Shown here: one piece after another, positions 6,437-51,038 of the stretch
Numbering within the stretch: the first letter of the stretch is position 1
Layout: every line of letters begins with the position of its first letter
Made by a program: the position numbers and the translations under genes
NCBI GenBank assembly: GCA_965205155.1
Contig: OZ242033.1
Span: 2,036,590-2,100,589, forward strand
Direction: 5' to 3'
Origin: Candidatus Aldehydirespirator sp.
GTDB taxonomy: Bacteria > Actinomycetota > Acidimicrobiia > Acidimicrobiales > Aldehydirespiratoraceae
Length of the DNA: 64,000 nt
Notes under the pieces: model-generated
The model's database searches: none
Told to the model about the DNA's origin: nothing
Seen by the model: only the letters and a program-made list of their open reading frames with translations

Positions 6437-6500
6437 GGCTGAGTCTCCTGGGGTCCGGTGGGGGGTCGGGGCGGGGGAGGGCTTCAGGTGCGGCCTCGCG

Positions 6501-11562: not shown

Positions 11563-12279
11563 ATGGTGCGCTTGTTCAGAGGTTGGATGACGGCACCGCT
11601 GCTTGCGGTGGCGCTGTGCCTGCTGGCGGCCGGGCCGGCCTCGGCTGCCGACGGCGGCGACGAGCTGGTTGTCAGTGTCGACCAGTCCGACTCCCTGGGC
11701 CTGGTCAAGACGGCCCAGTCCGATGGCGGCACCGATGCGGACTCCGGTCCGGACCGGCGCCTGGTCGGGCGGGAGAGCGGCGAGCGGGTGGATGCGGTGG
11801 TGATCGCCCTCTGGACCATCGCCGGGGTGATGACCGTGCTGCTCGGGGTCTTCCTGTGGCACACCAGCCCTCGCCGGCGCCTGCGGTTGGCGGGCCCGTC
11901 GGCTGAGCTGTTCGACGGCGCCGAGGGGAGTGTCGGACCGTCCGAGGATGCGTCGACCGGGGATGTGGCGGCCGAGGATGTGGCGGCCGAGGATGTGGCG
12001 AGCGGGGATGTGGCGGCCGAGGATGCGGCGAGCGGGGATGTGGCGGCCGAGGACGAGTCGCGAGAGGACTCGCTCGAGGGTGGCGTTGGCGGGAGGGTGC
12101 GAGAGGCGCTCCTCTGGCTCCGCTCGCGGGTGGCTCCGCAACAGGTTTCGGTGCCTGCCGTCGATGAGGTTTCGGTGTCTGCCGTCGATGACTCCCAGCA
12201 GGAGTCCGGCAGGGATTCCGAGGACGAGTCGGCTGTGTGGAAGTTCGGCGAGGAGGACGGCGGGGAGCGTTCGGTCTAG
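11563..12279 (+). CDS. hypothetical signal-peptide/TM protein with an acidic repeat tail
   Basis: MVRLFRGWMTAPLLAVALCLLAAGPASA signal, later TM VVIALWTIAGVMTVLLGVFLW, GDVAAED-type repeats encoded by 15/30-bp DNA repeats. Confidence 0.55.
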   Translation: MVRLFRGWMTAPLLAVALCLLAAGPASAADGGDELVVSVDQSDSLGLVKTAQSDGGTDADSGPDRRLVGRESGERVDAVVIALWTIAGVMTVLLGVFLWHTSPRRRLRLAGPSAELFDGAEGSVGPSEDASTGDVAAEDVAAEDVASGDVAAEDAASGDVAAEDESREDSLEGGVGGRVREALLWLRSRVAPQQVSVPAVDEVSVSAVDDSQQESGRDSEDESAVWKFGEEDGGERSV

Positions 12280-12559: not shown

Positions 12560-12632
12560 GCGGACGTAGCTCAGTTGGTAGAGCGCAACCTTGCCAAGGT
12601 TGAGGTCGCCGGTTCGAAGCCGGTCGTCCGCT
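12560..12632 (+). tRNA. tRNA-Gly (anticodon GCC)
   Basis: Acceptor GCGGACG/CGTCCGC, D arm TAGCTCAGTTGGTAGAGC, anticodon loop TTGCCAA, T arm GCCGGTTCGAAGCCGGT. No encoded CCA. Confidence 0.9.
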
Positions 12633-12635
12633 CGG

Positions 12636-13226
12636 ATGGATACCGCCGGAGCCCTCCGTGGTGACCTTGGAGCGGGGCTCGGCGCGATAGGGGGCGTGGC
12701 GCTCTGCACGCTCGGCGACTATTGGCGACCGGACCGTGACGAGCGCACCGGGATCGGCGAGCTGGTCCACCGGGCCAAGGACGGGGACGATCCGGGGGCT
12801 GCGACGGAGCTGGCTGAGCGGTTCGCCGGCCTGGCACCGGGCCTGCCGGAGGCGCGAGGCGGCGTGCCGCGGCTGGTGGCGCCGGTCCCGTCCCGGCCGG
12901 CCGCGGACGGCGACGATGCCCGCCCGCATCTCGCTGAGCTGCTGGCTGCGTCGTTGGCCGCGGCCGGGGCGGGGGAGTACCGGCCGGAGCTTGTGGAGAA
13001 GACCAACCCCACGCCCCGCCTGCGTCACGTTGATCCCGAGCACCGAGCCGAGGTGGCGGCCTCAGCGGGCTACAGGGCTCGTGAGCCGGTGGCCGGACGC
13101 CACATCGTGGTGGTCGATGATGTGGTGCTCACCGGCACGACGCTTGGCGCGGTGACCGCCTGCCTGCGCGACGCGGGAGCGGCCTCGGTGACGGCGGCGG
13201 TAGCGGCCCGCACTCGGCTGCGCTGA
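12636..13226 (+). CDS. ComF-family / phosphoribosyltransferase-domain protein
   Basis: C-terminal PRTase motif HIVVVDDVVLTGTTL. Start uncertain: ATG 12636 abuts the tRNA, GTG 12696 is the alternative. Confidence 0.7.
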   Translation: MDTAGALRGDLGAGLGAIGGVALCTLGDYWRPDRDERTGIGELVHRAKDGDDPGAATELAERFAGLAPGLPEARGGVPRLVAPVPSRPAADGDDARPHLAELLAASLAAAGAGEYRPELVEKTNPTPRLRHVDPEHRAEVAASAGYRAREPVAGRHIVVVDDVVLTGTTLGAVTACLRDAGAASVTAAVAARTRLR

Positions 13227-13255: not shown

Positions 13256-13660
13256 TCAGTCCCGTCCGGTACCCGGTTGCTCGTGCATGCGCCGCAGCGC
13301 CGCTGCGATGTCGTCAACGCTGAGGGAGCCCGCGGCGGCGGCCATGACGAGTTCGTACACGTCGTCGTTGGCGGCTGCGCGCACGCTGGCCTCGTTGAGT
13401 TCCAGGAAGACGGACGCCGCAAGCCAGCCGAGGCGCTTGTTGCCGTCGATGAGGGGGTGGCTGTTGACGACCGACTGCAGAAGCGCGCCGGCTTTGGTCC
13501 AGACATCCGGGTACGCGTCCTCGCCGAAGGCTGAGGCCTGTGGTCGTGCCGCGGCTGCCCCGAGAAGTCCGACATCGCGCACCGGCGGAGGCTCGCCGAG
13601 CAGCCGGCGGGCCAGTTCCAGGAGGTCCTCAGTGTCGAGGTACTCGAAGCTGCGGCTCAC
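13256..13660 (-). CDS. doc: Fic/Doc-family toxin (death-on-curing)
   Basis: HPLIDGNKRLGW Fic motif, 134 aa, 4-nt overlap with the upstream antitoxin. Confidence 0.85.
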   Translation of the reverse strand: MSRSFEYLDTEDLLELARRLLGEPPPVRDVGLLGAAAARPQASAFGEDAYPDVWTKAGALLQSVVNSHPLIDGNKRLGWLAASVFLELNEASVRAAANDDVYELVMAAAAGSLSVDDIAAALRRMHEQPGTGRD

Positions 13661-13860
13661 TCGCCCAGCCGCCGGAGCGCGTCGGCGTGGCGCTCCATGA
13701 TCGCGTCGGCCGCGGTTGCGACCCGGTCGCGATGCTCAGCCCTGGCGACGTACTCGCGCACCGCCCGCCGGACCGCCTCCTGCATGGAGGTGCCGTCGAG
13801 CGCGGCTCGCATCCGCAGAGCGTCCTGCTCCTCCTCGGTCAACCTGAGTGTCATCGCCAT
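13657..13860 (-). CDS. ribbon-helix-helix antitoxin partner of Doc
   Basis: MAMTLRLTEEEQDALRMRAALDG... RHH-type N-terminus. ATGA overlap with doc. Confidence 0.75.
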   Translation of the reverse strand: MAMTLRLTEEEQDALRMRAALDGTSMQEAVRRAVREYVARAEHRDRVATAADAIMERHADALRRLGE

Positions 13861-13941: not shown

Positions 13942-14019
13942 GCGCCGGTGCCCGAGCGGACCAAGGGAACGGCCTGCAAAGCCGTAAAGCCGCGGGTTCA
14001 AATCCCGCCCGGCGCTCCA
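13942..14019 (+). tRNA. tRNA-Cys (anticodon GCA), CCA encoded
   Basis: Acceptor GCGCCGG/CCGGCGC, anticodon arm ACGGC-CTGCAAA-GCCGT, T arm GCGGG-TTCAAAT-CCCGC, discriminator T plus CCA. Confidence 0.85.
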
Positions 14020-14183
14020 GTCCAGTTTCCAGTGGCGCCTTCGCCTGCATTCTGCGTTTGGGTTCGCCAAACTGACCGCAAGTGCTCTGGGTGGCGCGAT
14101 TGGATGCCTGGATGGGCTATCTCGCCGTTGGTTGAGCGCGATCCAGGTGGTCGGTGATTCCTCTGGACTGCGCTCGGGTGCGC

Positions 14184-14214
14184 CCAGGTCGGCGGCCTCA
14201 GGCCGCCGACCTGG
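14184..14214. repeat. perfect 14-bp GC-rich inverted repeat (hairpin), loop TCA
   Basis: ccaggtcggcggcc tca ggccgccgacctgg. No T tract follows. Confidence 0.6.
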
Positions 14215-14616
14215 ACTTGAGTCCCTAGTGGGCGTCAGGGGGTGCTCGGTTGGGTTGTGGCTGATTGTTCCCGGGCTCTGGTGCGGGTAAGGGGGTCTGG
14301 CTGCCGTGTTACGGTCTGTGGTCATGGCATGGCCAACTGCTGCAATAGGCAGCACATCCAACCGGCTGCGAGTGTTCTCGTCGGATACCGCGAGCCCCGG
14401 ATTCGTTGCCTTGTGCTGGGGAGGCTTCCAGACTGCTCGGTGGTTGGCATGCTGGCGTACCGCGGGACACCCAGCCTACGTGCGGTGGCACCGGCACTCC
14501 AGAACTCGTACCGAGTATTGGGTCCCCGCAAACAGCACTCTGACGTCGACCGCTCTGGTTGGAGCACCCGGGCCATGCCAACGTAGCGCTACTCGTAGCT
14601 GCGGACTCGCATCAAG

Positions 14617-16680
14617 TTGCCGGAGACATCCGATGCGCGGCCGGCAGTATCTGGACCGACGATCCGGGCCCGATCTCGATTAAGGAAGCTGAGCCTGGGA
14701 AAGAGACCCGTGATACGACACACGACTGATCCGAAGCCCGCTCGTCGCGGTACCACTCACGCGCTAGTCCTCGTGGGTGTCGCCGCGGTCATGTTCTCGC
14801 TTATCCCTATCTCGATCGACGTTTCTGGCAGTAGTGGCGCTCCCATGGCGGTTGGTGCTGGCTTTATCGTCGGCTATGCGCTCTCAACGCATGTGGCGCG
14901 TTACTATAGTTCGGACAATCGACCAGTATCGTATCGACACATACTCCGAAGATGTCGCAGTGGCCAAGTCGCACTCGGAAGTCTCATTTTCTCCTTTGTT
15001 CTGATGGTCATCAACTCGTTCGATTATCTCTTTTTCTCATGGTCTACCGTCTATATGGACACAGCGGTGAGTTCGTCATTGATGGAGATATGGCCGGTGC
15101 TCTGGATCTTGGCCTTCCAGTATATTGACAGGGCGAGATATGGGGTTAGTGAGTATCGAGTTGTTCCATTCATTACCGTCGTCCTAATGATACTGGGAGC
15201 TGGAGCAATAGCCCTTGTCATATTCTCTTCTGTGAGTACACAATTCTCTGATCAGAGCGCATCATTGCCCATACTCGGAATCCTCCTTGGCATTGTGGCT
15301 CCAGCAGTTGGCGCGTTGGGAGCATTCAACTTCCTTCTCACTGATCGAATACTGTTCGGCAAGACTCGGAGCGCCAAGGATGATTGGGCGATACTCGCCT
15401 CAGAGGATGTCGAACTTGAGCAAGTCGAGGAGTCCATCACGCATGCTGGCGTGGTGCTAAGTCGTGTTTGTGCCACACCTATTGTGGTACTTGTTGCTGT
15501 TCTTGATGATGGGTTTAGGTCTGCCCTCTTATCTCGTCCATTCCTGGGAGGACTATTGTGCGGGTTGCTGCTGAATGGACCGGGAAGCGTACTACTTCGG
15601 AGAGCACACATCATTAGTTCACGACGAGAGATCATCTCGCTTCAGTACCTTTCTCCGATCTTGTCTCTGTTCTGGCTAGCACTCTTTACCAGCATCGATG
15701 TTGCAAGGATGGATTTTCTGATATTTGGTACAGTCAGTATTGTCGCACTCAACATGCTGATTAACGCTGACCCGGAGCAAAAGAAGGGAGTAGAGTTTGA
15801 CGATAGGGAAGCCGGAGTTATTCAAGAACGTTACAGCCTAAAGGCTCTTGTGATTTCGTTGCTGGGATTTGGTATGTTGATCTTCTTTCGCGATGAACTC
15901 TTGACTGGTTATGATCTTTCATGGAGCGAAGATGGGAGCTACTGGGCAGTGCTGGGATTGGCTTCTACAGTTTTCGCCCTTCTGTTAGCCTTCAGGCTGA
16001 CTCGTGTAGAATCGTTGCTCCTGGCAGAGGACTATAGGACGCTGGGGATAGTTCGTAGAGTCGAAATGCTTCCGAAGAAGATCTTTGGCACTCAAGATGA
16101 TGAAGACTCAAAGATGTACTTGCTCGAATGGATTCGGCGCCTAAATCGAGCCAACAGCCTCGATGAGTATCGTCACGCATACAATCGTACACATCGCTTC
16201 TTTCAGGTCATATTGAACCGAATCGATGAGGGTGACTTGCAACTAACGGGTGAGGAGAAGCTAGAAGTGAGTGCAATTCGTACCGAACTTGATGCTCTTG
16301 CACATGGAAGGCAACATGCCCGGGAGTTCGCGGAACGGGTTGCCTTGTGGTTGATTGGCGGAACGATTGTAGTGATCTGTATGGCAGTGCCACCACAAGG
16401 CTCGGACTGGGCTCGCGTGTTGTCGGAGATCTTCTCTATTGTTCTTTCCTCAATCGTAATCTATCTCCTATTTCACCTAGCTGATCTGCGCCGGTCACGT
16501 GCTGATGAGCTTCTGATGGAGAAGGATCCCGATTGGAAGTTCTTGTCGGATGGACTATATGTCCGCTTCCGTGACGAGAACGATGCGACATGGCAACGGA
16601 TTTTCTCTGGGCTCATCATTGTCGGGATCGTGGCTACGGTTGTGGGACTGTTGGTTTGGAATCGGTTGGGCTTTACGTGA
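14617..16680 (+). CDS. large polytopic membrane protein, AT-richer than its surroundings (N-terminal half looks EamA/DMT-like; function unknown)
   Basis: 687-aa uninterrupted ORF with more than 12 hydrophobic segments and a helical soluble insert. TTG 14617 or GTG 14710 start. Composition visibly lower in GC than flanking DNA. Confidence 0.7.
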   Translation: MPETSDARPAVSGPTIRARSRLRKLSLGKRPVIRHTTDPKPARRGTTHALVLVGVAAVMFSLIPISIDVSGSSGAPMAVGAGFIVGYALSTHVARYYSSDNRPVSYRHILRRCRSGQVALGSLIFSFVLMVINSFDYLFFSWSTVYMDTAVSSSLMEIWPVLWILAFQYIDRARYGVSEYRVVPFITVVLMILGAGAIALVIFSSVSTQFSDQSASLPILGILLGIVAPAVGALGAFNFLLTDRILFGKTRSAKDDWAILASEDVELEQVEESITHAGVVLSRVCATPIVVLVAVLDDGFRSALLSRPFLGGLLCGLLLNGPGSVLLRRAHIISSRREIISLQYLSPILSLFWLALFTSIDVARMDFLIFGTVSIVALNMLINADPEQKKGVEFDDREAGVIQERYSLKALVISLLGFGMLIFFRDELLTGYDLSWSEDGSYWAVLGLASTVFALLLAFRLTRVESLLLAEDYRTLGIVRRVEMLPKKIFGTQDDEDSKMYLLEWIRRLNRANSLDEYRHAYNRTHRFFQVILNRIDEGDLQLTGEEKLEVSAIRTELDALAHGRQHAREFAERVALWLIGGTIVVICMAVPPQGSDWARVLSEIFSIVLSSIVIYLLFHLADLRRSRADELLMEKDPDWKFLSDGLYVRFRDENDATWQRIFSGLIIVGIVATVVGLLVWNRLGFT

Positions 16681-16710
16681 GCACGAGATGACGCCGAGGG
16701 GATTAACGGC

Positions 16711-17117
16711 GTGACCCCAGGGTGCTATGTTCCGTGTGTGACGCCGGACTTCTTCCATTATGGGAGCAGCGACGTACCTCCGAGGCTTGTTAGGCAGCGT
16801 TCCTGGCCGAGCATTTCGGGAAGTTGGGCCGATCTTGAGGAAAGCACCACCTTGAATCCCTCGCTAGCAGGAGGTGGGCGAACCAGCTACGCAAACCAGA
16901 GTTCGACCGTCGATTGTTGGTCGCGTCGGGTCCTCTCAAGAAGCCCCTGCCCCAAAGCACCCGCGAACAGCAGCGCGAGCACCGCCGTATGTGGGACTGG
17001 ATCAAGAGCGCGGAACGAGTGGCCCTCAGGGAGGCTGAAGAGGACCTTCGCTACTATGGGAATCCTTGGGGAGCATTCAAGACAGCGAAGAAAGTGTACG
17101 ACCGGTTCCGGATCTGA
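16711..17117 (+). pseudogene. decayed paralog of the HExxH protein at 17829-18608 (internal deletion plus frame change)
   Basis: N-terminal LVRQRSWPSISGSWADLEE matches LVRQRPWPTLQGRLPDLEE. In another frame, LVASGPLKKPLPQSTREQQREHRR matches VVASGILRKPLPLDTREQQREHRR. The HExxH core is missing. Confidence 0.55.
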
Positions 17118-17250
17118 GCTGAGGCTTGGCGCGCACTAGGGAAGCCTCCGGGGTAGACGGCGGCGCGTGTCGTTCGCCTCTCGACGCGATGCGTAGCTGA
17201 GCGCTGCCCGCCGGTGGTGCGCGAAGCTAACTGACATCGGCATCGATGAT

Positions 17251-17820
17251 GTGCCCGAACTGATTGGCAACGGCGTGCGTTTGCGCGAACTCCGTGACAG
17301 CGACATCGCGCAGCGGGCGTCGTTGGGGCGTAGCCGTGAGATCATCCGCGGATTCGGCGGCGACCTCGACGCGGACGAGCCCATGACCGAAGCGGACGCC
17401 GCTGCAGAGCTGGGCCAGCGGTTCGGGCCGGGCCCGCACTGGGTGATCGCCGACCAACGCGACGTGTTCATCGGAGTGGTGCGCCTTGCTCCGATCGATG
17501 TTGCGAACCGGTCGGCACGGCTCGGTATCGGCATCCTTGATCCGGATCGCCTCGGTCAGGGACTTGGTAGCGAGGCAATTCGCCTCGCGCTGGGCTACGG
17601 GTTCGACTGTCTGGACCTGCATCGGGTGAGCCTCACTGTCCTGGCGGACAACTCCAGCGCTATCGCGGCCTACGCTCGATGCGGATTCGTCGTCGAGGGC
17701 CGATTTCGCGACAGCCTCTGGCGCGACGGCACGTGGCACGACGACTTGTCCATGGCCATCCTCAAACCGCAGTGGGATGCTCAACGCGCTGGTGAGCAGG
17801 TGCCGCAAGCGGGGCGTTAG
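17251..17820 (+). CDS. GNAT-family N-acetyltransferase (RimJ/RimL-like)
   Basis: LGQGLGSEAIRLALGYGFD...HRVSLTVLADNSSAIAAYARCGF acetyl-CoA-binding core. Confidence 0.85.
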   Translation: MPELIGNGVRLRELRDSDIAQRASLGRSREIIRGFGGDLDADEPMTEADAAAELGQRFGPGPHWVIADQRDVFIGVVRLAPIDVANRSARLGIGILDPDRLGQGLGSEAIRLALGYGFDCLDLHRVSLTVLADNSSAIAAYARCGFVVEGRFRDSLWRDGTWHDDLSMAILKPQWDAQRAGEQVPQAGR

Positions 17821-17828
17821 GGGTCAAC

Positions 17829-18608
17829 GTGTCTGGGTGGGATTACGGAGTGCCGGAGGGCTTTGGCCCGGCGGAGCATCTCGCGCCTAAGTTCCCGCGG
17901 GATTTCTTTGTGTTTCGGGGCACTGATCAGAGATGGGGGTCTGTACATGCTCCCGACAGGCTTGTGCGGCAGCGGCCGTGGCCGACACTGCAAGGGCGTC
18001 TTCCCGACCTCGAGGAAGCCATCGCGTGGTTCGAGCACATCGCTGAGATCAGCGGGATCATGCTGTTGAGGCTGGCTCCGGGCACGGGCCAGGCTGGGCT
18101 CTACAGCCTGCAGGAACGAGCGATCTACCTGGCTGATGAGCTGTTCGAGCTGCCGCCGATGTACGCGTGGGTGCTGGCCCATGAGCTGGCCCACGCCGTG
18201 GATCCGCGTTTTGAGGCGTTCGGCGCGATCGAGTACGGCCAACCCAAGTACAGCCACCGCACCCGCGACTACGAACTGATCGCCGAGAGTGCCGCCATGG
18301 ACGCCTTGTTGTCGTTCAAAGTGATTCCGTTTCAAGACAGCGAGTACCTGTCGGGCCTTGCTGGCAAGAGGTGGCGCAAGAAGCTGACCGGCCCCGACAG
18401 GGGCGCTCGCCTGGTGGTGGCGTCAGGCATCCTGCGCAAGCCGCTGCCACTAGACACCCGCGAGCAACAGCGCGAACACCGCCGAGCTCAACTAAACCTG
18501 CAGGCCACCATCCACCGCCTCGACAAGCGGCTACAACAGGAGATGGCGGTCCACAGATACACGCAGGACCCGTTCTCGCGCAAAGCAATACTCGATCTGT
18601 GGAGATGA
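17829..18608 (+). CDS. hypothetical protein with an HExxH zinc-metalloprotease motif
   Basis: WVLAHELAHAVDP. No family recognised beyond the motif. Confidence 0.6.
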   Translation: MSGWDYGVPEGFGPAEHLAPKFPRDFFVFRGTDQRWGSVHAPDRLVRQRPWPTLQGRLPDLEEAIAWFEHIAEISGIMLLRLAPGTGQAGLYSLQERAIYLADELFELPPMYAWVLAHELAHAVDPRFEAFGAIEYGQPKYSHRTRDYELIAESAAMDALLSFKVIPFQDSEYLSGLAGKRWRKKLTGPDRGARLVVASGILRKPLPLDTREQQREHRRAQLNLQATIHRLDKRLQQEMAVHRYTQDPFSRKAILDLWR

Positions 18609-19253
18609 CCCTGTAGCCGATCAGCGGTCAAGGGCGGCTCTGGTCTGTCGAGGGGTGGTTCGTAGACTTCGACTATGCGGACGCCGTTGTCGGATGGCGA
18701 TCATGAGTTCTTGAGCGGGTTCCGGTTCCAGTCCGAGCGGGTCTGGGATGACGACTCGGCGGTGTCTGATGCGGCGGTGGGGCGGGTGATGCTGTTGGGT
18801 GACATCCACAACAGCCGCAAGGTGTTGGACGCAGCGCTGCGAACCACTCGCGATGAGGATTGCGACGTGTTGGTGCAGGTCGATGACTTCTGGCTCCAGG
18901 ACTCCAACTGGCGTGGCTTCTCTCCCGAGCACGCCGGCGTCATGTACTCGGCGGTGCATGCGCCCATTCCGGTGGTGGTCGTGGATGGCAACCACGAAGT
19001 CTGGCCGTGCTTGTCGGCGTTTCTGGCACGCGACGACACCGCCACGGCTCGCGAGATGGGCCGGCCGCTGCACTTGGCCGGCTCGCTGTGGTGGGCCGAC
19101 CGCGGCAGCACCTAGACCTGGGCAGGCCGACGCTTCGGGGCGCTGGGCGGCTCCGCGTCGCCTGACCGGTGGATGCCCCGCGCCACGCCGTACTGAGGTG
19201 GGTCCCTGATTTGAGTCCGCGTGTTGTGGGTCTGAGTCCCCAAGGATGGGAGG

Positions 19254-19541
19254 ATGACCACAATGAAGCGGAGAAGGCATACTCCGGAGCAGGCGGTTCG
19301 CAAGGTCCGTGAGGGCGAGCGGATGCTGGGCGCGGGCACGGATCTCACCGAGGTTCTGCGGCATCTGGAGATCACCGAGTCGACCTGGCATCGCTGGCGC
19401 CGGGCCTATGCGGGGATGAGCGCGTCGGATGCTCGGCGGCTCAAGGAGCTGGAGGCCGAGAACGCCAGGTTGAAGAAGCTGTTGGCGGAGGCGGAGCTGG
19501 ACAAGGCGATGCTCAAGGAGCTGGCCGAGGGAAAATGGTGA
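19254..19541 (+). CDS. IS3-family transposase OrfA (HTH plus leucine zipper)
   Basis: RRRHTPEQAVRKV..., LKELEAENARLKKLLAEAELDKAMLKE. Confidence 0.85.
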   Translation: MTTMKRRRHTPEQAVRKVREGERMLGAGTDLTEVLRHLEITESTWHRWRRAYAGMSASDARRLKELEAENARLKKLLAEAELDKAMLKELAEGKW

Positions 19542-20383
19542 CCCCGGACCGTCGCCGGATCGCCGTTGAGCGGCTCCAGGTGCGGTTCGGGGTGTCTGAG
19601 CGTCGGGCGTGTCGGGTGGTGGGCCAGCACCGTTCGACCCAGCGCCGGCCCAAAGCGCCGCCGAGCGCAGCTGAGGAGCGGCTGCGGGAGCATCTGCGGG
19701 ACTTCGCGAGATGCCATCCCCGCCTGGGGTGGCGCAAGGCCCATGTGGTCGCTTGCCGGCAGGGGCTGGTGACCAATTCCAAGCGCACACGGCGCCTGTG
19801 GCGTGATGAGGGCCTTCAGCGGCCGCCTCAGCGTCGAGCCAAGCGCCGCCGGCTCACCGACGGCACCGCGGCGAGGCTGCGCGCCAGCTGCCCCAACGAC
19901 GTGTGGGCCCTGGACTTCCAGTTCGACGAGACCGCCGATCTGCGCCGCATCAAGCTGCTCAACGTCGTCGACGAGTTCACCCGAGAGGCCCTCGCCATCG
20001 AGGCCGCCCACAGCATCGACTCCGACGGCGTCGTCGGCACCGTGGAGCGCCTCGTCGCCGACCGCGGCGCCCCAGCGCATCTGCGCATGGACAACGGTCC
20101 CGAGCTCACCGCGGCCGCGCTAAGGGACTGGTGCCGGATCTGGGGCACCCACACCGCCTACATCGAGCCCGGATCGCCCTGGGAGACCCCCTTCGTGGAG
20201 TCCTTCAACGGCAGGCTGCGAGACGAGTGCCTCAACATCGAGGACTTCGCCAACATCCTCGAAGCCCAAGTGATCCTCGAGGACTGGCGAACTGAGTACA
20301 ACCACTACCGGCCCCACCAATCCCTCGGCGGGCTCACTCCCGCCGCCTACGCTTCCCACTGGAAGCAACACCAACACCCATAG
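19535..20383 (+). CDS. IS3-family transposase OrfB (DDE integrase core), probably expressed by -1 frameshift from OrfA
   Basis: WALDFQFD..., LRMDNGPEL, YIEPGSPWETPFVESFNGRLRDE, YNHYRPHQSLG. Confidence 0.85.
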   Translation: MVTPDRRRIAVERLQVRFGVSERRACRVVGQHRSTQRRPKAPPSAAEERLREHLRDFARCHPRLGWRKAHVVACRQGLVTNSKRTRRLWRDEGLQRPPQRRAKRRRLTDGTAARLRASCPNDVWALDFQFDETADLRRIKLLNVVDEFTREALAIEAAHSIDSDGVVGTVERLVADRGAPAHLRMDNGPELTAAALRDWCRIWGTHTAYIEPGSPWETPFVESFNGRLRDECLNIEDFANILEAQVILEDWRTEYNHYRPHQSLGGLTPAAYASHWKQHQHP

Positions 20384-20527
20384 CACCTGGACTCACAAAC
20401 GGGTCCCCCTCAGTACCGCTGGGAACAGGAAACAACCACCAGAGAGGACCTAGAGCGGCTGTTGGACAACGCCTCCGACGGGCTGGATGTACTGATCAGC
20501 CACGACGCGCGCAATGAACGCGCTTCG

Positions 20528-20665
20528 TGGTCTCCTCAAATGTGCAGCAAGGCGATTTCAAATGTGCAGCACCATCTGAGGGTGTTCGTTTGCGGAGGTC
20601 AGGGGATTATGCGAACCCGCCTCCAGTCCCAGCTCCAGTTCAGTCGGCGCCTTCACCCTATCTTG
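20528..20665 (+). repeat. junction element C1: two AAATGTGCAG boxes, a pseudo T-arm and a decayed tRNA-Cys 3' flank
   Basis: Boxes at 20538 and 20560. gaggtcaggggattatgcgaacccgcc-tccagtcc-...-ggcgccttc is collinear with 14004-14042. Confidence 0.75.
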
Positions 20666-20706
20666 GCTTTCTCCCTGGGCTAGGCGAACAGAGTCCGACC
20701 TCGGGC

Positions 20707-21183
20707 CTATTCGAAGACGTCCAGGCGTCCGCTGCCGAGGAGCCGCTTTGCCGCGTCGATCGCGGCTTGTGCGGTGTTGAGGGCTTGCTGGGCGTCGTTC
20801 TCGTCGACTCCGGGGGAGTCTTCGTCGGGATACTCGGTGCGGTTGCGGCGCCGGCGCATGGCGTGCAGGCGGCCGAATACCGCCATTCCGCCTCGATCGT
20901 TGAATTGGGCGCGCACGGCATCGATGACAGCGATGTGGCCCCCTCGGGTGGTGGCGCGCAGCCCTTGTACCGCGAGCAGTGCGGCAGCGGCCTTGCGTGC
21001 GGCGTCGTAGGAAAGCTGGAGCGCGCCTGCCGGGTCGTCTGAGGTGCCCTTTGAGGCGAGCCTGATATGCGCGTCGGCGTCGGCCACCAACCGGCTGGCG
21101 ACCCCGGCCGAGGGGGCCACCTGTTCGAGTTCGCCGTCCGCTATCAATCGTTCGACCTCGGCGTGTCCCCGTTGCCAGCTCAT
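20707..21183 (-). CDS. putative HEPN-like toxin partner of the upstream NTase/HTH protein
   Basis: All-helical 158 aa, 4-nt overlap with the NTase gene, Arg-rich RLHAMRRRRNRTEY segment. Family assignment is tentative. Confidence 0.5.
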   Translation of the reverse strand: MSWQRGHAEVERLIADGELEQVAPSAGVASRLVADADAHIRLASKGTSDDPAGALQLSYDAARKAAAALLAVQGLRATTRGGHIAVIDAVRAQFNDRGGMAVFGRLHAMRRRRNRTEYPDEDSPGVDENDAQQALNTAQAAIDAAKRLLGSGRLDVFE

Positions 21184-21818
21184 GGGGATCTACCACCTTT
21201 GGCTTCAAGCTCAAGGAGTTCTCTTGTTGGTTCGTGTTCATCGTTCGCGAGGACGACGACGAGGGGCCGCGACTTGACTTCCCGGATGAAACTGCTGCGC
21301 TCAGATCTCCACTGGGAGGGCGTGCGGACGGTCGCTTGGACCGGCATCCCGATCCGTTCCTCGACCCGTTGGGCAGCGTCGTCTACGAGATCGCGGTCTG
21401 CGTCTCCGATTACCAGCACGTCGACGTCGTTCGGGGCTCGGCCCGCCTCGCCCAAATAGCGTGCGGCCCAAGAACCGATCAACAGGACCGCTTCAGCCCC
21501 CTGGATGCCGGCGAGTTCTTCGGCAACCACCGTCGGCGGGCCGTATGTGGCGAGAATGATCCGGCGCACCGCGTCGTATAGAGGATGGTCGACCCTGGCA
21601 CGCACTTGCCGCATGGGACCGACCTTCTCGGTGGTGAGGATTCCGGCCTGCTCAGCTCGAAGCACTTCCCGCAGCACCGTCGGCATGCTCGTGCGGGTCG
21701 CGGCGACCAGGTCGGACAAGCTGTGGCTCTTGTCGGGGTCGGCGAGCACGCGCGCCAGGATCCTGCCCTGGGCGTCTGAGCGAAGGATAGGAGCGAGCGG
21801 CGGCGCAGGAACTTTCAT
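21180..21818 (-). CDS. winged-helix plus minimal nucleotidyltransferase (MNT-type) protein, putative antitoxin
   Basis: N-terminal HTH (LSDLVAATRTSMPTVLREV), NTase signature GSWAARY...PNDVDVLVIGD. Confidence 0.7.
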   Translation of the reverse strand: MKVPAPPLAPILRSDAQGRILARVLADPDKSHSLSDLVAATRTSMPTVLREVLRAEQAGILTTEKVGPMRQVRARVDHPLYDAVRRIILATYGPPTVVAEELAGIQGAEAVLLIGSWAARYLGEAGRAPNDVDVLVIGDADRDLVDDAAQRVEERIGMPVQATVRTPSQWRSERSSFIREVKSRPLVVVLANDEHEPTRELLELEAKGGRSP

Positions 21819-21860
21819 AAACCGTATAGAACTATACGCTTTTAGAAAGCAGATGCAACA

Positions 21861-21910
21861 GGGAATTATGCGAAGGCACCTCTAGTAGCTCCTCGAGTTT
21901 CGAATCGCAA
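21861..21910 (+). repeat. partial junction element (gggaattatgcgaaggcacctctag...agtttcgaatc)
   Basis: Matches the ggggattatgcgaaggcgcc...agtttgaacc part of the element at 22.4 kb. Confidence 0.5.
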
Positions 21911-22214
21911 CTACTTTCTCGTCGGGACCCACTTGAAGGTCCGGAGAGCAATAGCGATCGCGGCGATTCCCCAGAAGGTCAACACGAGAGAGGGGCCCAG
22001 AAGTGTGCCGTCTGCCATTGGATCGTAAGCCGATGTGAGGATTCCGACGAGCGCTCGAACGGGGAAGAGGGATACCAGCATCTCCAGCCAACCGGGGATG
22101 CAGCAGGCAGAAGATCTCCCCTCGCTCGATGGAGAACGAGAGTTCTTGCAGCACTGGCTGGGCCCCGAAGGACTTCGACACCCTGTCGACCTTGACCACC
22201 GGAGTCACAACCAC
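21882..22214 (-). pseudogene. remnant of an ABC transporter (ATPase N-terminus fused to permease C-terminal fragment)
   Basis: VKVDRVSKSFGAQPVLQELSFSIERGEIFCLL then nonsense. Another frame reads ...TFWGIAAIAIALRTFKWVPTRK stop. Confidence 0.55.
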
Positions 22215-22321
22215 TCTCCCACCGTGGCCACGAGCGCCCTCGGCACCAGTTCCGACCTCTTCCCCATGCGGCGGTCCAGCCTACGTTACGGCGACGCTCT
22301 GACCTTGATAAACGCGCTTCC

Positions 22322-22461
22322 TGATCTCCTCAAATGTGCAGCATGGCGATTTCAAATGTGCAGCAGCATCCTAGGAGTGCCCGTTTGCCGAGGTCAGGGG
22401 ATTATGCGAAGGCGCCGCCAGTTTGAACCGCCCTGGCTTTCCCGGAGGGTCTTGGTGTGCC
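22322..22461 (+). repeat. junction element C2 (direct repeat of C1)
   Basis: Boxes at 22332 and 22354. About 88 nt nearly identical by eye to 20528-20612, then ttgaaccgccctggctttcccggagggt. Confidence 0.75.
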
Positions 22462-22517
22462 CCGGGCAGTGCGCCTGTCCGGCAGTCCTAGGCCGGCTCC
22501 CTGGTTGCCATCGGGAT

Positions 22518-22544
22518 CGTTTGACATTAGATTAATGTCAAACG
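22518..22544. promoter_or_regulatory. 12-3-12 perfect palindrome, likely operator of the RHH antitoxin operon
   Basis: cgtttgacatta gat taatgtcaaacg, 35 nt upstream of the antitoxin start. Confidence 0.5.
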
Positions 22545-22578
22545 ATTCGATTGACTGCCAGCCGACGAAGGAGTCAGC

Positions 22579-22800
22579 ATGAGCCAGATCACCGCCCGGG
22601 TTCCCGATGAGCTCGTTGAGGCGCTCGATGCGGCCGCTGAGGCTCTGAAGCGCAGCCGGGCCGACGTCATTCGCCACGCCTTGGAACGCTATTTGGAGGA
22701 CTACGACGATCTCGATGTGGCCCTTGAGCGCCTGCGGGACCCAGCTGACCCGGTACTCGACTGGGACGAGGTCCGACAAGAGCTGCTCAACTCGGATTGA
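22579..22800 (+). CDS. ribbon-helix-helix (CopG/RelB-type) antitoxin
   Basis: MSQITARVPDELVEALDAAAEALKRSRADVIRHALERYL. Confidence 0.8.
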   Translation: MSQITARVPDELVEALDAAAEALKRSRADVIRHALERYLEDYDDLDVALERLRDPADPVLDWDEVRQELLNSD

Positions 22801-22847
22801 TCGCCGCGCGGCCCAGAGAACGCGAGATGGCGCAGAAGCCGTAGACG

Positions 22848-23111
22848 ATGGCCGCGTACTCAGTCCGGATCAAGCGCAGCGCCACCCGAGACCTGGCGCA
22901 GATTGCTCGCCAGGATCGCGAGCGCATCGTGTACGCCATCGATCGTCTCGGCGAGCAGCCGCATGCGGGCTACCCGCTGAAGGGAGCCCTGCGGGGCCTT
23001 CGCCGCATACGCGTCGGCGACTACAGGGTCATCTACGAAGTGCTCGACAATGAACTCGTCGTCCTCGTTGTTCGAGCCGCCCACCGCCGAGAGGCCTATC
23101 GCCGCCGCTAG
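22848..23111 (+). CDS. RelE/ParE-family toxin
   Basis: LKGALRGLRRIRVGDYRVIYEVLDNELVVLVVRAAHRREAY. Confidence 0.85.
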   Translation: MAAYSVRIKRSATRDLAQIARQDRERIVYAIDRLGEQPHAGYPLKGALRGLRRIRVGDYRVIYEVLDNELVVLVVRAAHRREAYRRR

Positions 23112-23202
23112 AACGGCAGACCGGTAGGACTCGCCAAGGGCGGCTTGGTCGTTCCAGTGACGCCGCTTTGGTATGGGAATGAGAACGATTATCATTTAGA
23201 TC

Positions 23203-24227
23203 ATGGTTGATGAGCGGGTTCCCGTGACGGTGCTGACGGGCTTTCTCGGTGCGGGCAAGACAACGTTGTTGAATCACATCCTCACCGAGCAGCACGGCAA
23301 GCGGATTGCGGTGATCGAGAACGAGTTCGGCGAGGTTGGCATAGACGATGCCATCGTCCTCGATGCCGAGGAAGAGATCTTTGAGATGAACAACGGTTGC
23401 ATCTGCTGCACCGTTCGAGGCGATCTGATCCGCATTCTCGGCAATCTGATGCGGCGCAAGGACCGGTTCGACCAGATCCTCATCGAGACGACGGGGCTGG
23501 CTGACCCTGCACCGGTGGCTCAGACGTTCTTCGTCGACGATGAGATAGCAGCCCAGCTGCGTCTCGACGCGATCGTCACGGTGGTCGACGCCAAACACCT
23601 GGTTCCACACTTGGACGAGGAGAAGCCCGACGGGGTCGAGAACGAAGCTGTCGAGCAGCTGGCGTTCGCCGATCGGGTCGTGCTCAACAAGATCGACCTC
23701 GCCGACATCAACGAGCTGGACGAGGTGGAGACCCGCATCCGGCAGGTCAACGCACTCGTGCCCATCGTCCGGACCCAGCATGGAAAGGTCGACCTTGATG
23801 CCATCCTCGAGGTCGGCGCGTTCTCGCTCGATCGTGTGTTGGCCGATGATCCCGAGTTCCTCGACCCCGATGCCGAGCATCAGCATGACCTCAGCGTGAC
23901 GTCGGTTGGCATCGAAGCCGATGGCGACCTCGATCTCGACCGGGTGAATGAATGGCTGGTCGATCTCCTGCGCACGAAGGGAACCGACATCTTCCGCTCG
24001 AAGGGCATCCTGTCGATCGCCGGCTGGGATCAGCGGTACGTGTTCCAGGGCGTCCACATGCTGCTTGACTGCGAGGCCCAGGGGGCGTGGGAGGACGGCG
24101 AGGAACGACGCAACCGCCTCGTGTTCATCGGACGCAACCTCGACCGACGGTCACTGTCGGTGCAACCGCATACGGCGGCGTCGGTTGGCACGATGTCGTT
24201 GGACCACGGACCGGCCGTCGACGTCGC
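23203..24227 (+). CDS. CobW/COG0523-family G3E GTPase (putative metallochaperone); reading frame breaks near 24.2 kb
   Basis: [13 protein letters not shown]-loop, [22 protein letters not shown]. The rest of ORF 23203-24618 is Arg/Pro-rich off-frame sequence. Confidence 0.8.
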
Positions 24228-24722
24228 TTCGAATGGAAGGGGTCGCTGCTCTCGCTGGCGATGTCTCCCGATGGAGCATGGGCCTGCGCCGGTGCCCAAG
24301 ACGCGACCGTGCAGCTGTGGCGGCTCTGGAGCGGCCGGGACCTCTCGATGTATGGCTATCCGTCCAAGATCGAGCGACTCGGGTTCCGCCACGACAGCCG
24401 ATGGCTTGCGGTTGCGTGCCTCGACGAGCTCACCGTCTGGGACTTCGGCGGGAAGGGGCCCGCCCGCACCGAGCCGGCAGTTGCCTCCGGTCACGACAAC
24501 CACATCGAGGACCTCGCTTGGGATCCATCCGGCCGGTCGGTCGCCACGGGGGGAGGAGACGGCCGCACCATCGTGTGGGCTGCCCCGACTCGTGCCGGCC
24601 AGGACCTGTCGCCGGTGACTGCACTCGAGTCCGATGCGGCGACCAGTCGACTCCGGTGGGTCAGCGAGGACAGCCTCCTGGTCGGTCGGGCCGACGGATG
24701 TCTGGTAAGACTCGCTCTCTGA
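24228..24722 (+). CDS. WD40-repeat segment (about 4 blades) in a different frame, apparently the displaced C-terminus of the CobW gene
   Basis: [66 protein letters not shown]. Confidence 0.6.
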
Positions 24723-25379: not shown

Positions 25380-25656
25380 GGAACGAAACGCTCCTGTGCT
25401 GTTCGTTCGGTGAGCCTATGCGTGAACCGTGAGTGCGGCACGCCCCGACCCATCGTCAATCCGCGCACACCCATACATCGCCTACGGAGATCGCATCTTC
25501 GAGGATTCCCGCTGGAACGACTCTGCCGTCTGCTGACCCCCCGGCTTCGGCTAGCCGGCACTCTCGGGCACGCTGGTGCTTTGGGCGTCTGACATGCGGT
25601 TCTCCCGTCGAGGGGGTCAAGCGGGCACCTGGCAAGTGTATGTACTACCTTTGACC

Positions 25657-28600
25657 ATGGCCGGATGCCGCGTTCAATGGGCCAGACGGTTGGTTGTTTG
25701 GGTCGCTGTTGCGGTGGTGTCAGTGGCGGTGGCAGCCGCGCCGGGCGCGGCCCAGGATGATGCGCCCTATTCGGACGTGGCTGCTGACGCCTACTACGCC
25801 GAGACTGTCAGCAGGCTGTCCGCGGACGGTGTGTTCGAGGGCACAGAGTGCGATGAGGGGTTCTGCCCCGATGAGGCCATAGACCGCGCCACGATGGCGG
25901 TGTGGACCGTGCGTGTCGTCGATGAAGCGGACCCCGCGCCGGTGAGTTCCACACGCTTTGCCGATGTGGACGCGACGCATGCTCAAGCGGCGTTCGTCGA
26001 GCGCCTAGCAGCACTCGGTGTCACCCAAGGATGCGGAGACGGCACCAACTTCTGCCCCGACAGCGCCGTGACCCGCGCCGAGATGGCCGTGTTCCTGTCG
26101 CGGGCCTTCGATCTGGCTGAAGGACCAGATCCCGGCTTCGGCGATGTGCCTGCTGACGCCTGGTACGCGGCCGACGTCGCCAAGCTCGCCGCATCGGGCA
26201 TCACCACCGGATGCGGGGACGGCACCAACTTCTGCCCGGACCAAGACACCACCAGAGCCCAGATGGCCAGCTTCCTGGCCCGCGCGCTGGGACTGGTCGA
26301 GCTGCCTGCATCGGTCCGATTCACAGCCTTGGACACCGGCGAAGCGCATTCGTGCGCGCTACGGACTGACAGCACTGTCGTCTGCTGGGGCGACAATGCA
26401 CACGGGCAGGCTGACGCTCCCGACGGTGCATTCCAGGCGGTTTCCGCTGGCGGAAGTGAATGGGACGGGAGCCATTCGTGCGCGCTGCGGACAGACGGCA
26501 CTGTCGTCTGCTGGGGATCCAACAACGTCGGGCAGAGCGACGCTCCTGGTGGGGAGTTCGTGACGGTCTCGGCCGGCGGCTATCACTCCTGCGGTGTGCG
26601 CGTCGACGCGACGGTCGCCTGCTGGGGCTTGAACACCCGCGGGCGGAGCGACGCTCCCGGTGGGGAGTTCGTGATGGTCTCGGCCGGTGGCGGCCATACG
26701 TGCGGTGTGCGCGTCGACGCGACGGTCGCCTGCTGGGGATGGAGAATTGGCGGGGCGACGGACGCTCCCGGTGGGGAGTTCGTGACGGTCTCGGCCGGCA
26801 GCAGCTCTTACTCGTGCGGTGTGCGCGTCGACGCGACGGTCGCCTGCTGGGGCTCCGACCTCGGGCTGACGGAGGCTCCTGGTGGGCAGTTCGTGGAGGT
26901 CTCGGTCGGCGTCCGCCGTGTGTGCGGTCTGCGAGTCGATGGAAGGGCCGTCTGCTGGCGCCTCCACCCCTGGCAGCAGGCTGTTCCCGACGGGGAGTTC
27001 GTGACGGTCTCCGCCGGGCGACGTCATTCGTGCGGTCTTCGGGTCGAGGGAACGGTGGTCTGCTGGGGCGACCACTCCGAGTACGCCTCGCCGGCTGACG
27101 CGCCTGTCGGGAAGTTCGCTGCTGTGGTGGCCGGTGATCAACATGCGTGCGGCCTGCGGGTCGACAGCAGCGCTGTCTGCTGGGGCAGAAGCCTCTTCGG
27201 GGAGGCGCACGCCTCGCCCGGGAAGTTCAGCGCCGTCTCGGCCGGCGGCTCGCAATCGTGCGGTGTGCGGGTCGATGGCGAGGTCGCCTGCTGGGGCGAA
27301 CGCGCCGAACGGCAGGCCGACGCTACCGGCGGGAAGTTCAGGGCAGTGACGAGCGGCGACAGGTACTCGTGCGGTCTGCGGGTCAACTACACCATTGAGT
27401 GCTGGGGCGTGATCGACGATGCCACCGTCCTGCCGATCCGCGGTCAGTTCGACGAGATCGCTGCGGGCGGCAGGTTTGTGTGCGGGCTGCGTCGTGATCG
27501 CACGATTGCTTGCTGGACGCCGCTGCCCGAGGCGCAGGTCGATCCTCCCGACGGTCGTTTCGACGGGGTGTCTGTCGGTGGAGCGCACGGCTGCGGGCTG
27601 CGCTCGGAGGGCGTGGTCGTCTGCTGGGGCGACGACTCCCATGGTCAGTCCGACGCCCCGGACGGCCGGTTCGTCGAGGTCTCGGCCGGAGGGCTGCATT
27701 CCTGCGGCCTGCGCGCCGATAGGACCGTCGAGTGCTGGGGCGACGACTCTGATGGTCAGTCCGACGCCCCGGACGGCCGGTTCGTCGCGGTCTCGGCCGG
27801 CTCAGACTTCTCGTGCGGAGTGCACGAGTCCGGCGCAATCCGGTGCTGGGGTTCTCATGTAGTCGGTCCGCCGGTCGGGGTGCAAGAAACAGGCGAGCCC
27901 CTCGGGCCCGACCCCCACAGCTGCCGGCCCTTCGCCGATGGGGGCACAGCCAATTGGCGCACAACGACGGGCTTCCCGCCGTCCCCAGAGGTGTCCTCGA
28001 CCACGGGCCGGCTGCGGGTGGCGGTCCTGTTCGTGGACTTCGACGATGCCATAGCAATCAACAGCGCTCAGCAGGAGAGCCTCAAGGGATTGCCCTACAT
28101 GAGGCGGTACCTGGAAGCCTCGAGCTACCGCAGGCTGCGGATCGAGTCCGTGCCGCTGTTGCGGTGGCTGCGGGCCGAGCACGGCTACCAGCACTACTTG
28201 TCGCAGTCGGCGTACGGGCCGGTGGACATCAGGCGCCGCATCGATCGGGAGGTGGTGTGGTTGGCGGATCCCCACTTCGACTTCAGCGGGATCGACGCGG
28301 CGATGATCGTCATGCCCAGCGCGCACTTCAGCGGCGGCAACGCTCGCGGCTACGTCGAGTCCGCGGAAGGACTGGTATCGACGCTGCGGGTCAACACGAT
28401 TCCTGCGGCCGGACACTTGGACGCGGGTTATGTGATGGCCCACGAACTGGCCCACAACCTTGGGTTGGCGGACCTGTACCCCTACAAGGCGCACCCCTAC
28501 ACGAGCATCCGTCGGCCGGCACCTCCTGCCGACGGCAAGTCGTGGCGCTGGGTCGAGCTGGGGCTGATGGGCCTGGCCTCATGGGTGCCGACGGACCGGG

Positions 28601-29043: not shown

Positions 29044-29102
29044 CGGCGGCTAGCAGACGGCCCTGGTCGTTCCAGCGGACGTCCTCGAAGATGCGATCGG
29101 GA

Positions 29103-30275: not shown

Positions 30276-30283
30276 CGGTCACC

Positions 30284-30355
30284 CGTCCCGTCGGGGAGGG
30301 CACGGCTCGTCCCGTCGGGGAGGGAACGGCCCGTCCCGTCGGGGAGGGCACGGCT
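30284..30355. repeat. tandem repeat, 3 x 24 bp (cgtcccgtcggggagggcacggct)
   Basis: Three adjacent near-identical units directly upstream of the DUF418 start codon. Confidence 0.9.
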
Positions 30356-30384
30356 CGTCTTGCACGGCGCTGCGGTGAACCACC

Positions 30385-30904: not shown

Positions 30905-30968
30905 ACACGTAGGCGAAGGAACACGTAGGCGAAGGGACACGTAGGCGAAGGGACACGCAGGCGAAGGG
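30905..30968. repeat. tandem repeat, 4 x 16 bp (acacgtaggcgaaggg)
   Basis: Four adjacent units with 1-2 substitutions, immediately 3' of the serpin stop. Confidence 0.9.
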
Positions 30969-33029: not shown

Positions 33030-33107
33030 GGGCCGTTAGCTCAGCCTGGTTAGAGCGCCTGCTCGACACGCAGGAGGTCAGAGGTTCAAATCCCCTACGG
33101 CCCACCA
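33030..33107 (+). tRNA. tRNA-Val (anticodon GAC) with unusual anticodon loop UCGACAC, CCA encoded
   Basis: Acceptor GGGCCGT/ACGGCCC, D arm GCTCAGCCTGGTTAGAGC, anticodon stem CCTGC/GCAGG, T arm AGAGG-TTCAAAT-CCCCT. Confidence 0.85.
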
Positions 33108-33108
33108 C

Positions 33109-50991: not shown

Positions 50992-51038
50992 GTGGGGTGG
51001 TCTCCTGTGGTGGGGGCGGTGCATCGTGGGGCTGCTGG

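Follow-up and report, generated by a model that had tools for sequence, protein, structure and literature searches.

What has placed a block of accessory DNA directly behind a tRNA gene is the question raised by the tRNA-Cys locus of Candidatus Aldehydirespirator sp. (contig OZ242033.1, positions 2,036,590 to 2,100,589), a stretch of 64,000 nucleotides that is called the window below and whose own numbering is used throughout. Three tRNA genes were located in the window by ARAGORN: tRNA-Gly (12560-12633), tRNA-Cys(GCA) (13942-14019, plus strand; Rfam tRNA, 59.9 bits) and tRNA-Val (33030-33107). Behind tRNA-Cys lies a ~9 kb array (14016-23158) of modular accessory DNA that starts at the exact 3' end of the gene (...CCCGGCGC|TCCA(G), an attB-like insertion point), and the three junctions marked in an earlier note on this DNA are module boundaries. 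Probably the array is a tandem of four non-autonomous cassettes, built up through site-specific insertion at the 3' end of tRNA-Cys by a recombinase acting in trans.

The earlier note had taken the borders of these modules for decayed copies of the tRNA-Cys 3' end and its downstream flank. The proposed copy of T-arm, acceptor and flank (14004-14045) at 20616-20657 reached a Smith-Waterman score of 33, which is chance level: in a random control of 60 71-mers drawn from the window the mean best score was 33, and 23 of the 60 scored at least as high as the query 13990-14060. The other two places, 22391-22461 and 21861-21910, scored 15 and 17 against the tRNA flank, and aggggattatgcgaa, taken earlier for a corrupted T-loop, forms the conserved 3' terminus of a separate element without tRNA origin, here named X. 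Between the tRNA-Cys 3' end (CCCGGCGC|TCCAG) and the end of X (GAAGGCGCC|TCCAG) the common stretch is only ~10-11 nt, GGCGC(C)TCCAG. The repeat itself is genuine, a direct repeat confirmed at all three places by alignment and by an nhmmer profile; what recurs there is the flank of the tRNA and not its body. For annotation, a reading of island borders as tRNA fragments may fail though the island geometry is correct.

In aligned copies X is a conserved non-coding element of ~128 nt, independent of the tRNA, with 80-92% conservation among copies. It starts with ACGCTCTGACCT, continues with two 13-bp direct repeats 22 bp apart and the motif AGGTCAGRG, and ends with AATTATGCGAAGGCGCC, its terminal 11-nt arm being GCGAAGGCGCC; a 9-bp inverted repeat (CTCTGACCT/AGGTCAGRG) brackets both 13-bp repeats. 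Within the window, 20514-20627 and 22308-22422 are direct repeats of 87-90% identity whose last ~28 nt recur at 21859-21886, and the boxes CAAATGTGCAGCA (4 occurrences, 0.7 expected) and GGGGATTATGCGAA (3 occurrences, 0.2 expected) are found on the plus strand only. A profile made from 12 copies of other genomes, with the window copies excluded, matched the 64 kb at 22294-22421 (E=2.1e-39), 20512-20626 (E=2.1e-31) and 21859-21885 (E=0.0025), and elsewhere gave nothing beyond weak reverse-strand self-matches caused by the internal dyad. A chance origin of the repeats was rejected on the box counts and profile E-values. In a double-box scan of one genome per species, X was found once per genome in six Acidimicrobiales genomes, and further copies were present in extra contigs fetched through neighbouring proteins; these loci and contigs from related genomes, used for comparison with the window, carry L-numbers (L001 etc.). 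With 1-2 copies per genome, none inverted, X was rejected as the end of a multicopy miniature inverted-repeat transposable element or insertion sequence (IS), and as a phage or plasmid attP it was rejected for want of a match in IMG/VR, INPHARED or PLSDB. In L012 (681-764) X is reduced to its 5' 84 nt, fused directly with the beginning of a gene of holB type (DNA polymerase III delta'), and this remnant probably marks the far boundary of the L012 array.

The second conserved arm, P', is ~120 nt long and opens with the inverted X arm GGCGCCTTCGC. P' stands directly after tRNA-Cys in the window, L002, L003, L009, L057, L059 and L060, and directly after X in L006, L008, L013, L055 (twice), L058, L059 and L060; between the tRNA flank of L009 and the X flank of L006 the identity is 83% across 117 nt (E=5e-29). 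When the window was left out of the P' profile, the best window match of that profile was 14035-14137, directly 3' of tRNA-Cys (E=4.3e-7), and this post-tRNA P' also matched the post-X flank of L010 (BLAST E=2.5e-7). In this form the stacked, attL...attR-like geometry described earlier was upheld, the sequence after the tRNA being of the same family as that after X elsewhere. The cargo that follows P' is unrelated from locus to locus and may lie on either strand.

Where X meets P', the cleanest junctions consist of the X end, a 6-nt spacer (O) and a perfect inverted repeat of the terminal 11 nt of X, as in L008 (GCGAAGGCGCC-TCAACG-GGCGCCTTCGC) and L059 (GCGAAGGCACC-TCAAGT-GGTGCCTTCGC), to which the core of L006 is similar. 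These three loci have the 11-6-11 core, which is degenerate in the window copies; the junctions of L058 and L010, also among the cleanest, read GAAGGGGCC-TCAGT-GGCCCCTTC and AACCTGCCTC-CAGT-GAGGCGGGTT. The two arms of the dyad covary (GGCGCC/GGCGCC, GGGGCC/GGCCCC, GGCACC/GGTGCC, CCTGCCTC/GAGGCGGG), with 9.1 of 11 positions matching between arms of the same junction and 7.6 of 11 between non-cognate pairs (48 of 20000 permutations). In many junctions the spacer has grown to 2-7 tandem TCCAG units with 0-2 A/T bases between them; the window tRNA is followed by three, L055 and L074 have seven each, and the empty site of L001 has two. Expanded spacers were mapped at 14016-14033 and 20622-20645 of the window, L055 3492-3545, L074 1737-1790, L009 5618-5650 and L001 5229-5240, and in 322 kb scanned, TCCAG clusters (>=3 within 32 nt) were confined to these junctions. 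Excision footprints, slippage or unequal exchange are possible sources of the expansion.

Two modules had been claimed for the window; mapping of the arms resolves the array into four cassettes, whose genes and arms are on the plus strand unless stated. Cassette 1 (14016-20621) begins with the expanded spacer after the tRNA (14016-14033, TCCAG-TCCAG-TTTCCAG-T) and its left arm P'1 (14034-14137, opening with GGCGCCTTCGC; P' profile and BLAST). Its cargo is a predicted 687-aa membrane protein without Pfam match (14617-16680), rightly called AT-richer (GC down to 0.51); a decayed paralog (16711-17139), a GNAT acetyltransferase (17251-17820) and a 259-aa paralog (17829-18608), the pair being related at 40% identity over 53 aa (BLASTP, E=2.6e-7); and a metallophosphoesterase pseudogene (18675-20510; Pfam Metallophos) with an in-frame stop, split by an IS3-family IS (19195-20413; rve, rve_3 and HTH_21 domains, inverted-repeat ends TGAGG...CCTCA, GTAC target duplication). 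The GNAT, the HEPN protein of the next cassette and the IS within the phosphoesterase, all named in the earlier note, were found by Pfam and sequence. The IS is an unrelated later insertion; it stops, with its own inverted repeats and target duplication, ~100 bp before X, and X as an IS3 end was rejected. The 3' end of the phosphoesterase is deleted along with the first ~12 nt of X_A, the right end of the cassette (20512-20621; two CAAATGTGCAGCA boxes, arm GCGAACCCGCC), whose nhmmer match starts at model position 13.

Cassette 2 (20622-21886) starts with an expanded spacer (TCCAG-TCCCAG-CTCCAG-TTCAG-TC) and the decayed P'2 (GGCGCCTTCACCCTATCTTGGCTTTC), together 20622-20700; the P'2 stretch is orthologous to L013 11185-11296, which fits the P' profile at E=1.5e-8. 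A HEPN toxin (20707-21183) and its MNT/ArsR-like partner (21180-21818) occupy the minus strand (20707-21818; Pfam HEPN, homolog names), and the right end is X_C (21859-21886), the last ~22 nt of X (CAGGGAATTATGCGAAGGCACC) with spacer TCTAGT, whose counterpart in L013 is a 41-nt version (12599-12639, E=8e-6). The ~1.3 kb HEPN-MNT unit of the window has 91-94% nucleotide identity to those of L008 and L013. Set against six other genomes, the unit of the window is inverted relative to X and P'; L013 shares this orientation, and the opposite one is found in L008, L055, L058, L060 and L074, where X lies on one or both sides of it. One breakpoint of this inversion falls within P'.

Cassette 3 (21887-22422) holds, on the minus strand, what is left of genes for an ABC-2 permease and an ABC ATPase (21887-22290), previously seen as transporter debris and here found homologous (92-94% identity) to intact genes of L013 (12666-14362), with a 1.4-kb internal deletion at 22100/22101; it ends in the full-length X_B (22294-22422; arm GCGAAGGCGCC, spacer GCCAGT). 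Cassette 4 (22423-23158) consists of a P' remnant and an RHH antitoxin (22579-22800; Pfam RHH_1) with a ParE toxin (22848-23111; Pfam ParE_toxin), and terminates at TTCCAG (23152-23157) with no X. A near-perfect palindrome (CGTTTGACATTAGATTAATGTCAAACG, 22501-22561) overlaps a promoter-like site (22505-22533) upstream of this pair and is probably its autoregulatory operator. The island ends at 23158 and not, as had been thought, at 22461, homology with L001 resuming at 23159. The window copy of the array is old and decaying.

Comparison of synteny with relatives, which the earlier note had proposed, yielded empty and differently filled tRNA-Cys sites. In L001, the closest relative, with flanks 95% identical, 14026-23158 of the window is missing: tRNA-Cys...TCCAG is followed by 48 bp and then by the cobW promoter, and homology breaks at 14025/14026. 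Other relatives have unrelated cargo at the site, including McrBC, AbiE, HipBA, PIN and restriction-modification genes. A phosphoribosyltransferase (PRTase, ComF-like) gene, whose homologs assign the window to uncultured Acidimicrobiia/Acidimicrobiaceae, sits between tRNA-Gly and tRNA-Cys, and contigs in which this protein is identical differ in the tRNA-proximal cassette, which is Fasciclin/ECF-sigma/anti-sigma, an Eco57I-type methylase with a BsuBI-type endonuclease, or DUF3644/DUF4365; in all cases the same MNT-HEPN cassette follows. L059 matches L057 except for an added 5.5-kb P'...X segment that lies precisely at O. The uninterrupted site of L057 reads CCCGGCGC|TCAAGT|GGCGCCTTCGCC; in L059 the left junction is CCCGGCGC|TCAAGT|GGTGCC..., with P' directly after the tRNA, and the right junction is ...GCGAAGGCACC|TCAAGT|GGTGCCTTCGCC, after which L057-like sequence continues at 98% identity. 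Within the insert are a gene for an SLH-RCC1 surface protein and the remains of an IS, and no integrase.

L013, from a different species, has the same array order as the window, with the ABC genes intact, X_A internally deleted and most of cassette 1 deleted (a pseudo-site as the cause of that deletion was rejected on sequence check); since the order is common to both, the array predates the split of these two lineages. In the more distant lineage of L066-L073, an 82%-identical MNT-HEPN lies between tRNA-Gly and tRNA-Cys without X or P', and a DndB/protein-kinase/MmeI defence island follows tRNA-Cys. The hot spot at tRNA-Cys therefore extends beyond the X/P' system. By their names, several related metagenome bins seem to be of sponge origin.

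The unit X-O-P' could instead be an intergenic regulatory unit (small RNA, terminator, or promoter/operator) that was duplicated, the hypervariable slot being reshuffled by homologous recombination between the copies, without a dedicated site-specific system. The 80-92% conservation of X, its long-range inverted repeat and GC-rich terminal hairpin would suit such a role, as would the position of P' directly upstream of MNT-HEPN in six genomes and the homology break between L058 and L060 at the edge of X. However, no Rfam match to X was obtained at E up to 1 in the window and six loci, the RNAalifold covariation term was +1.06, giving the fold no covariation support, and single-strand folding was no better than that of shuffled sequence (z-scores -0.07 to -1.4). 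On these grounds X was rejected as a known RNA (Rfam, covariation) and as an attC-like single-strand hairpin (folding), and its hairpin was not called as an intrinsic terminator by a terminator scan. Moreover, P' adjoins unrelated cargo on either strand, and homologous recombination cannot make the first tRNA-O-P'...X-O-P' tandem or the O-to-O insert of L059. A regulatory origin is very improbable.

The main mechanistic rival is transposition with terminal inverted repeats (TIRs) and target-site duplication. Mobile insertion cassettes and other non-autonomous TIR elements carry passenger genes between short terminal inverted repeats and no transposase. The elements here would then be transposase-less cassettes with 11-18-bp TIRs (GGCGCCTTCGC...GCGAAGGCGCC) moved by a DDE transposase in trans into a TCCAG/TCAAGT target that is duplicated over 5-6 bp, with the tandem TCCAG units as excision footprints; this reading is quite unlikely. 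Such footprints would explain the spacer expansion, and the TCCAG arrays are indeed confined to junctions, the empty site of L001 having two copies. As inverted repeats, both ends of the same cassette match at 7-10 of 11 positions, and IS3-, IS110-, IS21- and ISL3-family transposases exist in these genomes. TCAAGT on both flanks of the L059 insert fits a target duplication but is equally expected from recombination overlap. Against transposition, no transposase gene was seen with element ends matching these repeats, and the conserved ends are long and asymmetric (~128 and ~120 nt, with direct repeats), unlike simple IS ends. The TCCAG units are separated by A or T and not by the G/C termini of the repeats, and strict targeting of a single site beside one tRNA is unusual for DDE elements outside the Tn7-like group, whose TGT...ACA ends are absent here. 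The cassettes differ from mobile insertion cassettes in their single insertion site and their long asymmetric ends, and no matching autonomous IS was found.

For site-specific insertion, a recombinase was sought. The earlier statement that no tyrosine or serine recombinase is visible in the window was borne out in ~65 window open reading frames (ORFs) by a Pfam scan that was not exhaustive and returned two unrelated IS3-family transposases; within the island the only such ORF is the IS3 rve transposase. The cassettes of relatives are likewise without integrase, no cognate autonomous element of the same site specificity was seen in 18 loci, and no intI lies near the insertion site, where the upstream genes encode the PRTase, Fic/RHH, a 75-aa protein, a membrane protein and a Cys/Met pyridoxal-phosphate enzyme. 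The transposases found near related arrays are of the IS3, IS21, IS110 and ISL3 families only, without matching ends. IS110-family (DEDD) transposases occur near arrays in L008 (~2.2-3.5 kb upstream of X1) and in L057 and L062 (7459-8664), and no X or P' match was found at the ends of these elements. Two sets of candidates were rejected. The ~600-aa proteins beside P', considered as a concealed mobility gene, have no relationship to one another, and an SLH-RCC1 surface protein is among them; the conserved 75-aa and ~225-aa genes upstream of tRNA-Gly, considered as recombinase, encode a small acidic protein and a membrane protein. A possible resemblance to dif, suggested by the ATTATGCGAAGG stretch, which may recall a XerD arm, was set aside, the crossover point not fitting; a possible resemblance of the arms to ISL3 inverted repeats was set aside too.

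These searches, with the tRNA comparison, bear on the reading of the locus as stacked classical tRNA-targeting elements (prophages, integrative and conjugative elements (ICEs) or integrative and mobilizable elements (IMEs)) whose integrases were lost by decay and whose attR sites are decayed tRNA-Cys 3' ends. Insertion at the exact tRNA 3' end and the attL...attR geometry agree with it, the window copy is heavily decayed (pseudogenes, IS, deletions, truncated X), and in other systems decay to cis-mobilizable elements (CIMEs) with subsequent accretion has been documented (PMC5704250, PMC3146451). Yet the tRNA match is at chance, ~10-11 nt being common and the remainder the unrelated X, and ~25 cassettes are without integrase, among them the recent 5.5-kb insert of L059 and intact 1.5-kb HEPN-MNT cassettes with full X and P'. 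A classical self-encoded integrative element failed because there is neither an integrase nor a real tRNA repeat, and this origin is unlikely.

CIMEs and accretion arrays at tRNA genes, such as the ICESt1-type elements and streptococcal IME/CIME tandems, have been reviewed, and the tandems arise by repeated site-specific integration and deletion (PMC5704250). The present array has the features that define an accretion array: tandem elements at a tRNA 3' end without integration or transfer genes and with att sites kept, both att-type ends appearing in the X and P' profile maps. It differs in that no integrase-bearing cognate ICE or IME was found in the 18 loci, that the cassettes are small (0.5-6.6 kb) and numerous, and that all of them have the same long two-armed site (X + P') with a tRNA identity of ~10 nt. 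In Dehalococcoides, ssrA islands are bounded by a 20-bp repeat of ssrA, beside which lies a conserved motif not alignable with ssrA; of 31 islands, 16 carry a module with a CcrB-like serine integrase, and some have no integration module (PMC3146451). Those islands, too, are in tandem downstream of a small stable-RNA gene, bounded by 3'-end repeats and a source of diversity between strains. The retention of the module in 16 of 31 is unlike the situation here, where no cassette holds a recombinase, less of the tRNA is shared, and the part unrelated to the tRNA is a structured element of 128 nt.

The probable reading as cassettes inserted by an enzyme in trans can be put as follows. Each cassette consists of P' as left arm (~120 nt), cargo, and X as right arm (~128 nt). 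On circularisation X and P' would abut as an 11-6-11 dyad with spacer TCCAGT or TCAAGT, an attP-like core with two arms, in which the two 13-bp repeats of X are putative arm-type protein-binding sites. Recombination of the circle would take place with GGCGC|TCCAG at the tRNA or, perhaps, with the end of an X already in place; since the tRNA end GGCGC|TCCAG mimics the X end GGCGCC|TCCAG, entry could occur at either. Entry at the tRNA is seen in the filled and empty alleles, and entry at an X junction is a proposal; either route would yield tRNA-O-P'...X-O-P'...X-O. The recombinase would be encoded outside the cassettes and act in trans, and from the core geometry a tyrosine recombinase is the best guess.

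Several observations weigh against this account. The arms of a junction covary, though simple accretion would bring them from different cassettes, and the expansion of the TCCAG spacer is not predicted by conservative recombination. Homology between L058 and L060 resumes at the 5' edge of X and not at O, the arrays of some relatives (L054, L056) have neither X nor P', and P'2 (20646-20700) alone was not significant in the profile search of the window. X is known from only ~10 genomes or contigs of one Acidimicrobiia clade, and no relative of it was found in IMG/VR, JGI metagenomes (where the matches were unrelated), PLSDB or INPHARED. For the enzymology, ~25 cassettes from 18 loci contained no recombinase, and because none was identified anywhere, what is said of the enzyme here stays conditional.

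Two recombinase-dependent cassette systems are also among the closest known parallels. Like integrons, the arrays have recombinase-less cassettes, a conserved, imperfectly palindromic site of ~130 nt, one preferred chromosomal insertion site, an abundance of toxin-antitoxin genes and strain-level cassette turnover. They differ in the absence of an adjacent intI, of R''/L''/L'/R' boxes and of GTTRRRY at the crossover point, in the use of a tRNA 3' end as insertion site, and in cassettes that may be multigene and two-armed; assignment to integrons failed because intI and attC architecture are missing. The pdif modules of Acinetobacter are recombinase-less, often hold toxin-antitoxin genes, are bounded by 11-6-11 sites and use host-encoded recombinase (XerC/XerD); they are plasmid-borne and have dif-like sites in alternating orientation. 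Discrete recombinase-less modules, often of toxin-antitoxin genes, with 11-6-11 core sites and with varying contexts and orientations of one module, are common to both systems, but here the X copies are all direct, chromosomal beside a tRNA and equipped with long accessory arms, and the pdif assignment failed because all sites are in direct orientation. It is conceivable, if doubtful at present, that the locus belongs to an undescribed integron-like capture platform of this Acidimicrobiia clade, in which the recombinase would be chromosomal elsewhere and not on a helper element, the tRNA end would play the role of attI, and recombinase-less cassettes with a two-armed site of ~250 bp would be inserted and excised. 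A limited full-text literature search found no description of the X/P' site or of such Acidimicrobiia arrays.

Other features of the window lie outside the array. Immediately upstream of tRNA-Cys are a Fic/Doc toxin and RHH antitoxin (13256-13860, minus strand), present also in L001, L003 and L056; the Fic toxin is missing in L013 and both genes in L002, and the upstream side of the tRNA is therefore also variable. Downstream of the array, the 471-aa 'cobW' ORF (23203-24618) is a fusion with its break at 24156; L001 has 482 bp (6286-6767) missing from the window, with a 327-aa CobW on one side of them and a WD40-type gene on the other. A 33-nt inverted repeat (91% complementary; 25489-25521 and 29066-29098) flanks an SLH/RCC1-repeat surface-protein gene (25576-29043). 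Each arm matches the 3' terminus of a PhyH-family gene that L010 and L013 keep intact, and at 25489-29098 of the window that gene would seem to have been disrupted or replaced. Just after tRNA-Val GC falls to 0.59 (33108-35000), which may be a second island; the P' profile near this tRNA gave only a non-significant match (33131-33156, E=1.6). A second IS3-family transposase (48184-49062, minus strand; rve, HTH_21) has no nucleotide similarity to the IS at 19195-20413. Well away from the tRNA-Cys array, more genes of toxin-antitoxin or defence type encode a Hypoth_Ymh-domain protein (47369-48118), a RES-domain toxin with its upstream partner ORF (51753-53095) and a 373-aa helix-turn-helix protein (50446-51567). 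Short tandem repeats were noted at 30282-30359 (24 nt x3), 30905-30968 (16 nt x3-4) and 12000-12059 (15 nt), the last within the acidic repeat region of a membrane protein upstream of tRNA-Gly.

The cargo of the arrays is mostly toxin-antitoxin, defence and surface-protein genes. If the proposed model is true, this clade of uncultured Acidimicrobiia would keep a rapidly exchanged stock of genes for toxin-antitoxin systems, restriction, defence and the cell surface at one tRNA gene, in cassettes that bear only a recombination site and rely on a separate enzyme. The cassette-array logic of integrons, CIME accretion and pdif modules would then extend to a new phylum and a new site architecture. 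X and P' provide a sequence signature for finding the recombinase and for mapping defence-island turnover in metagenomes.

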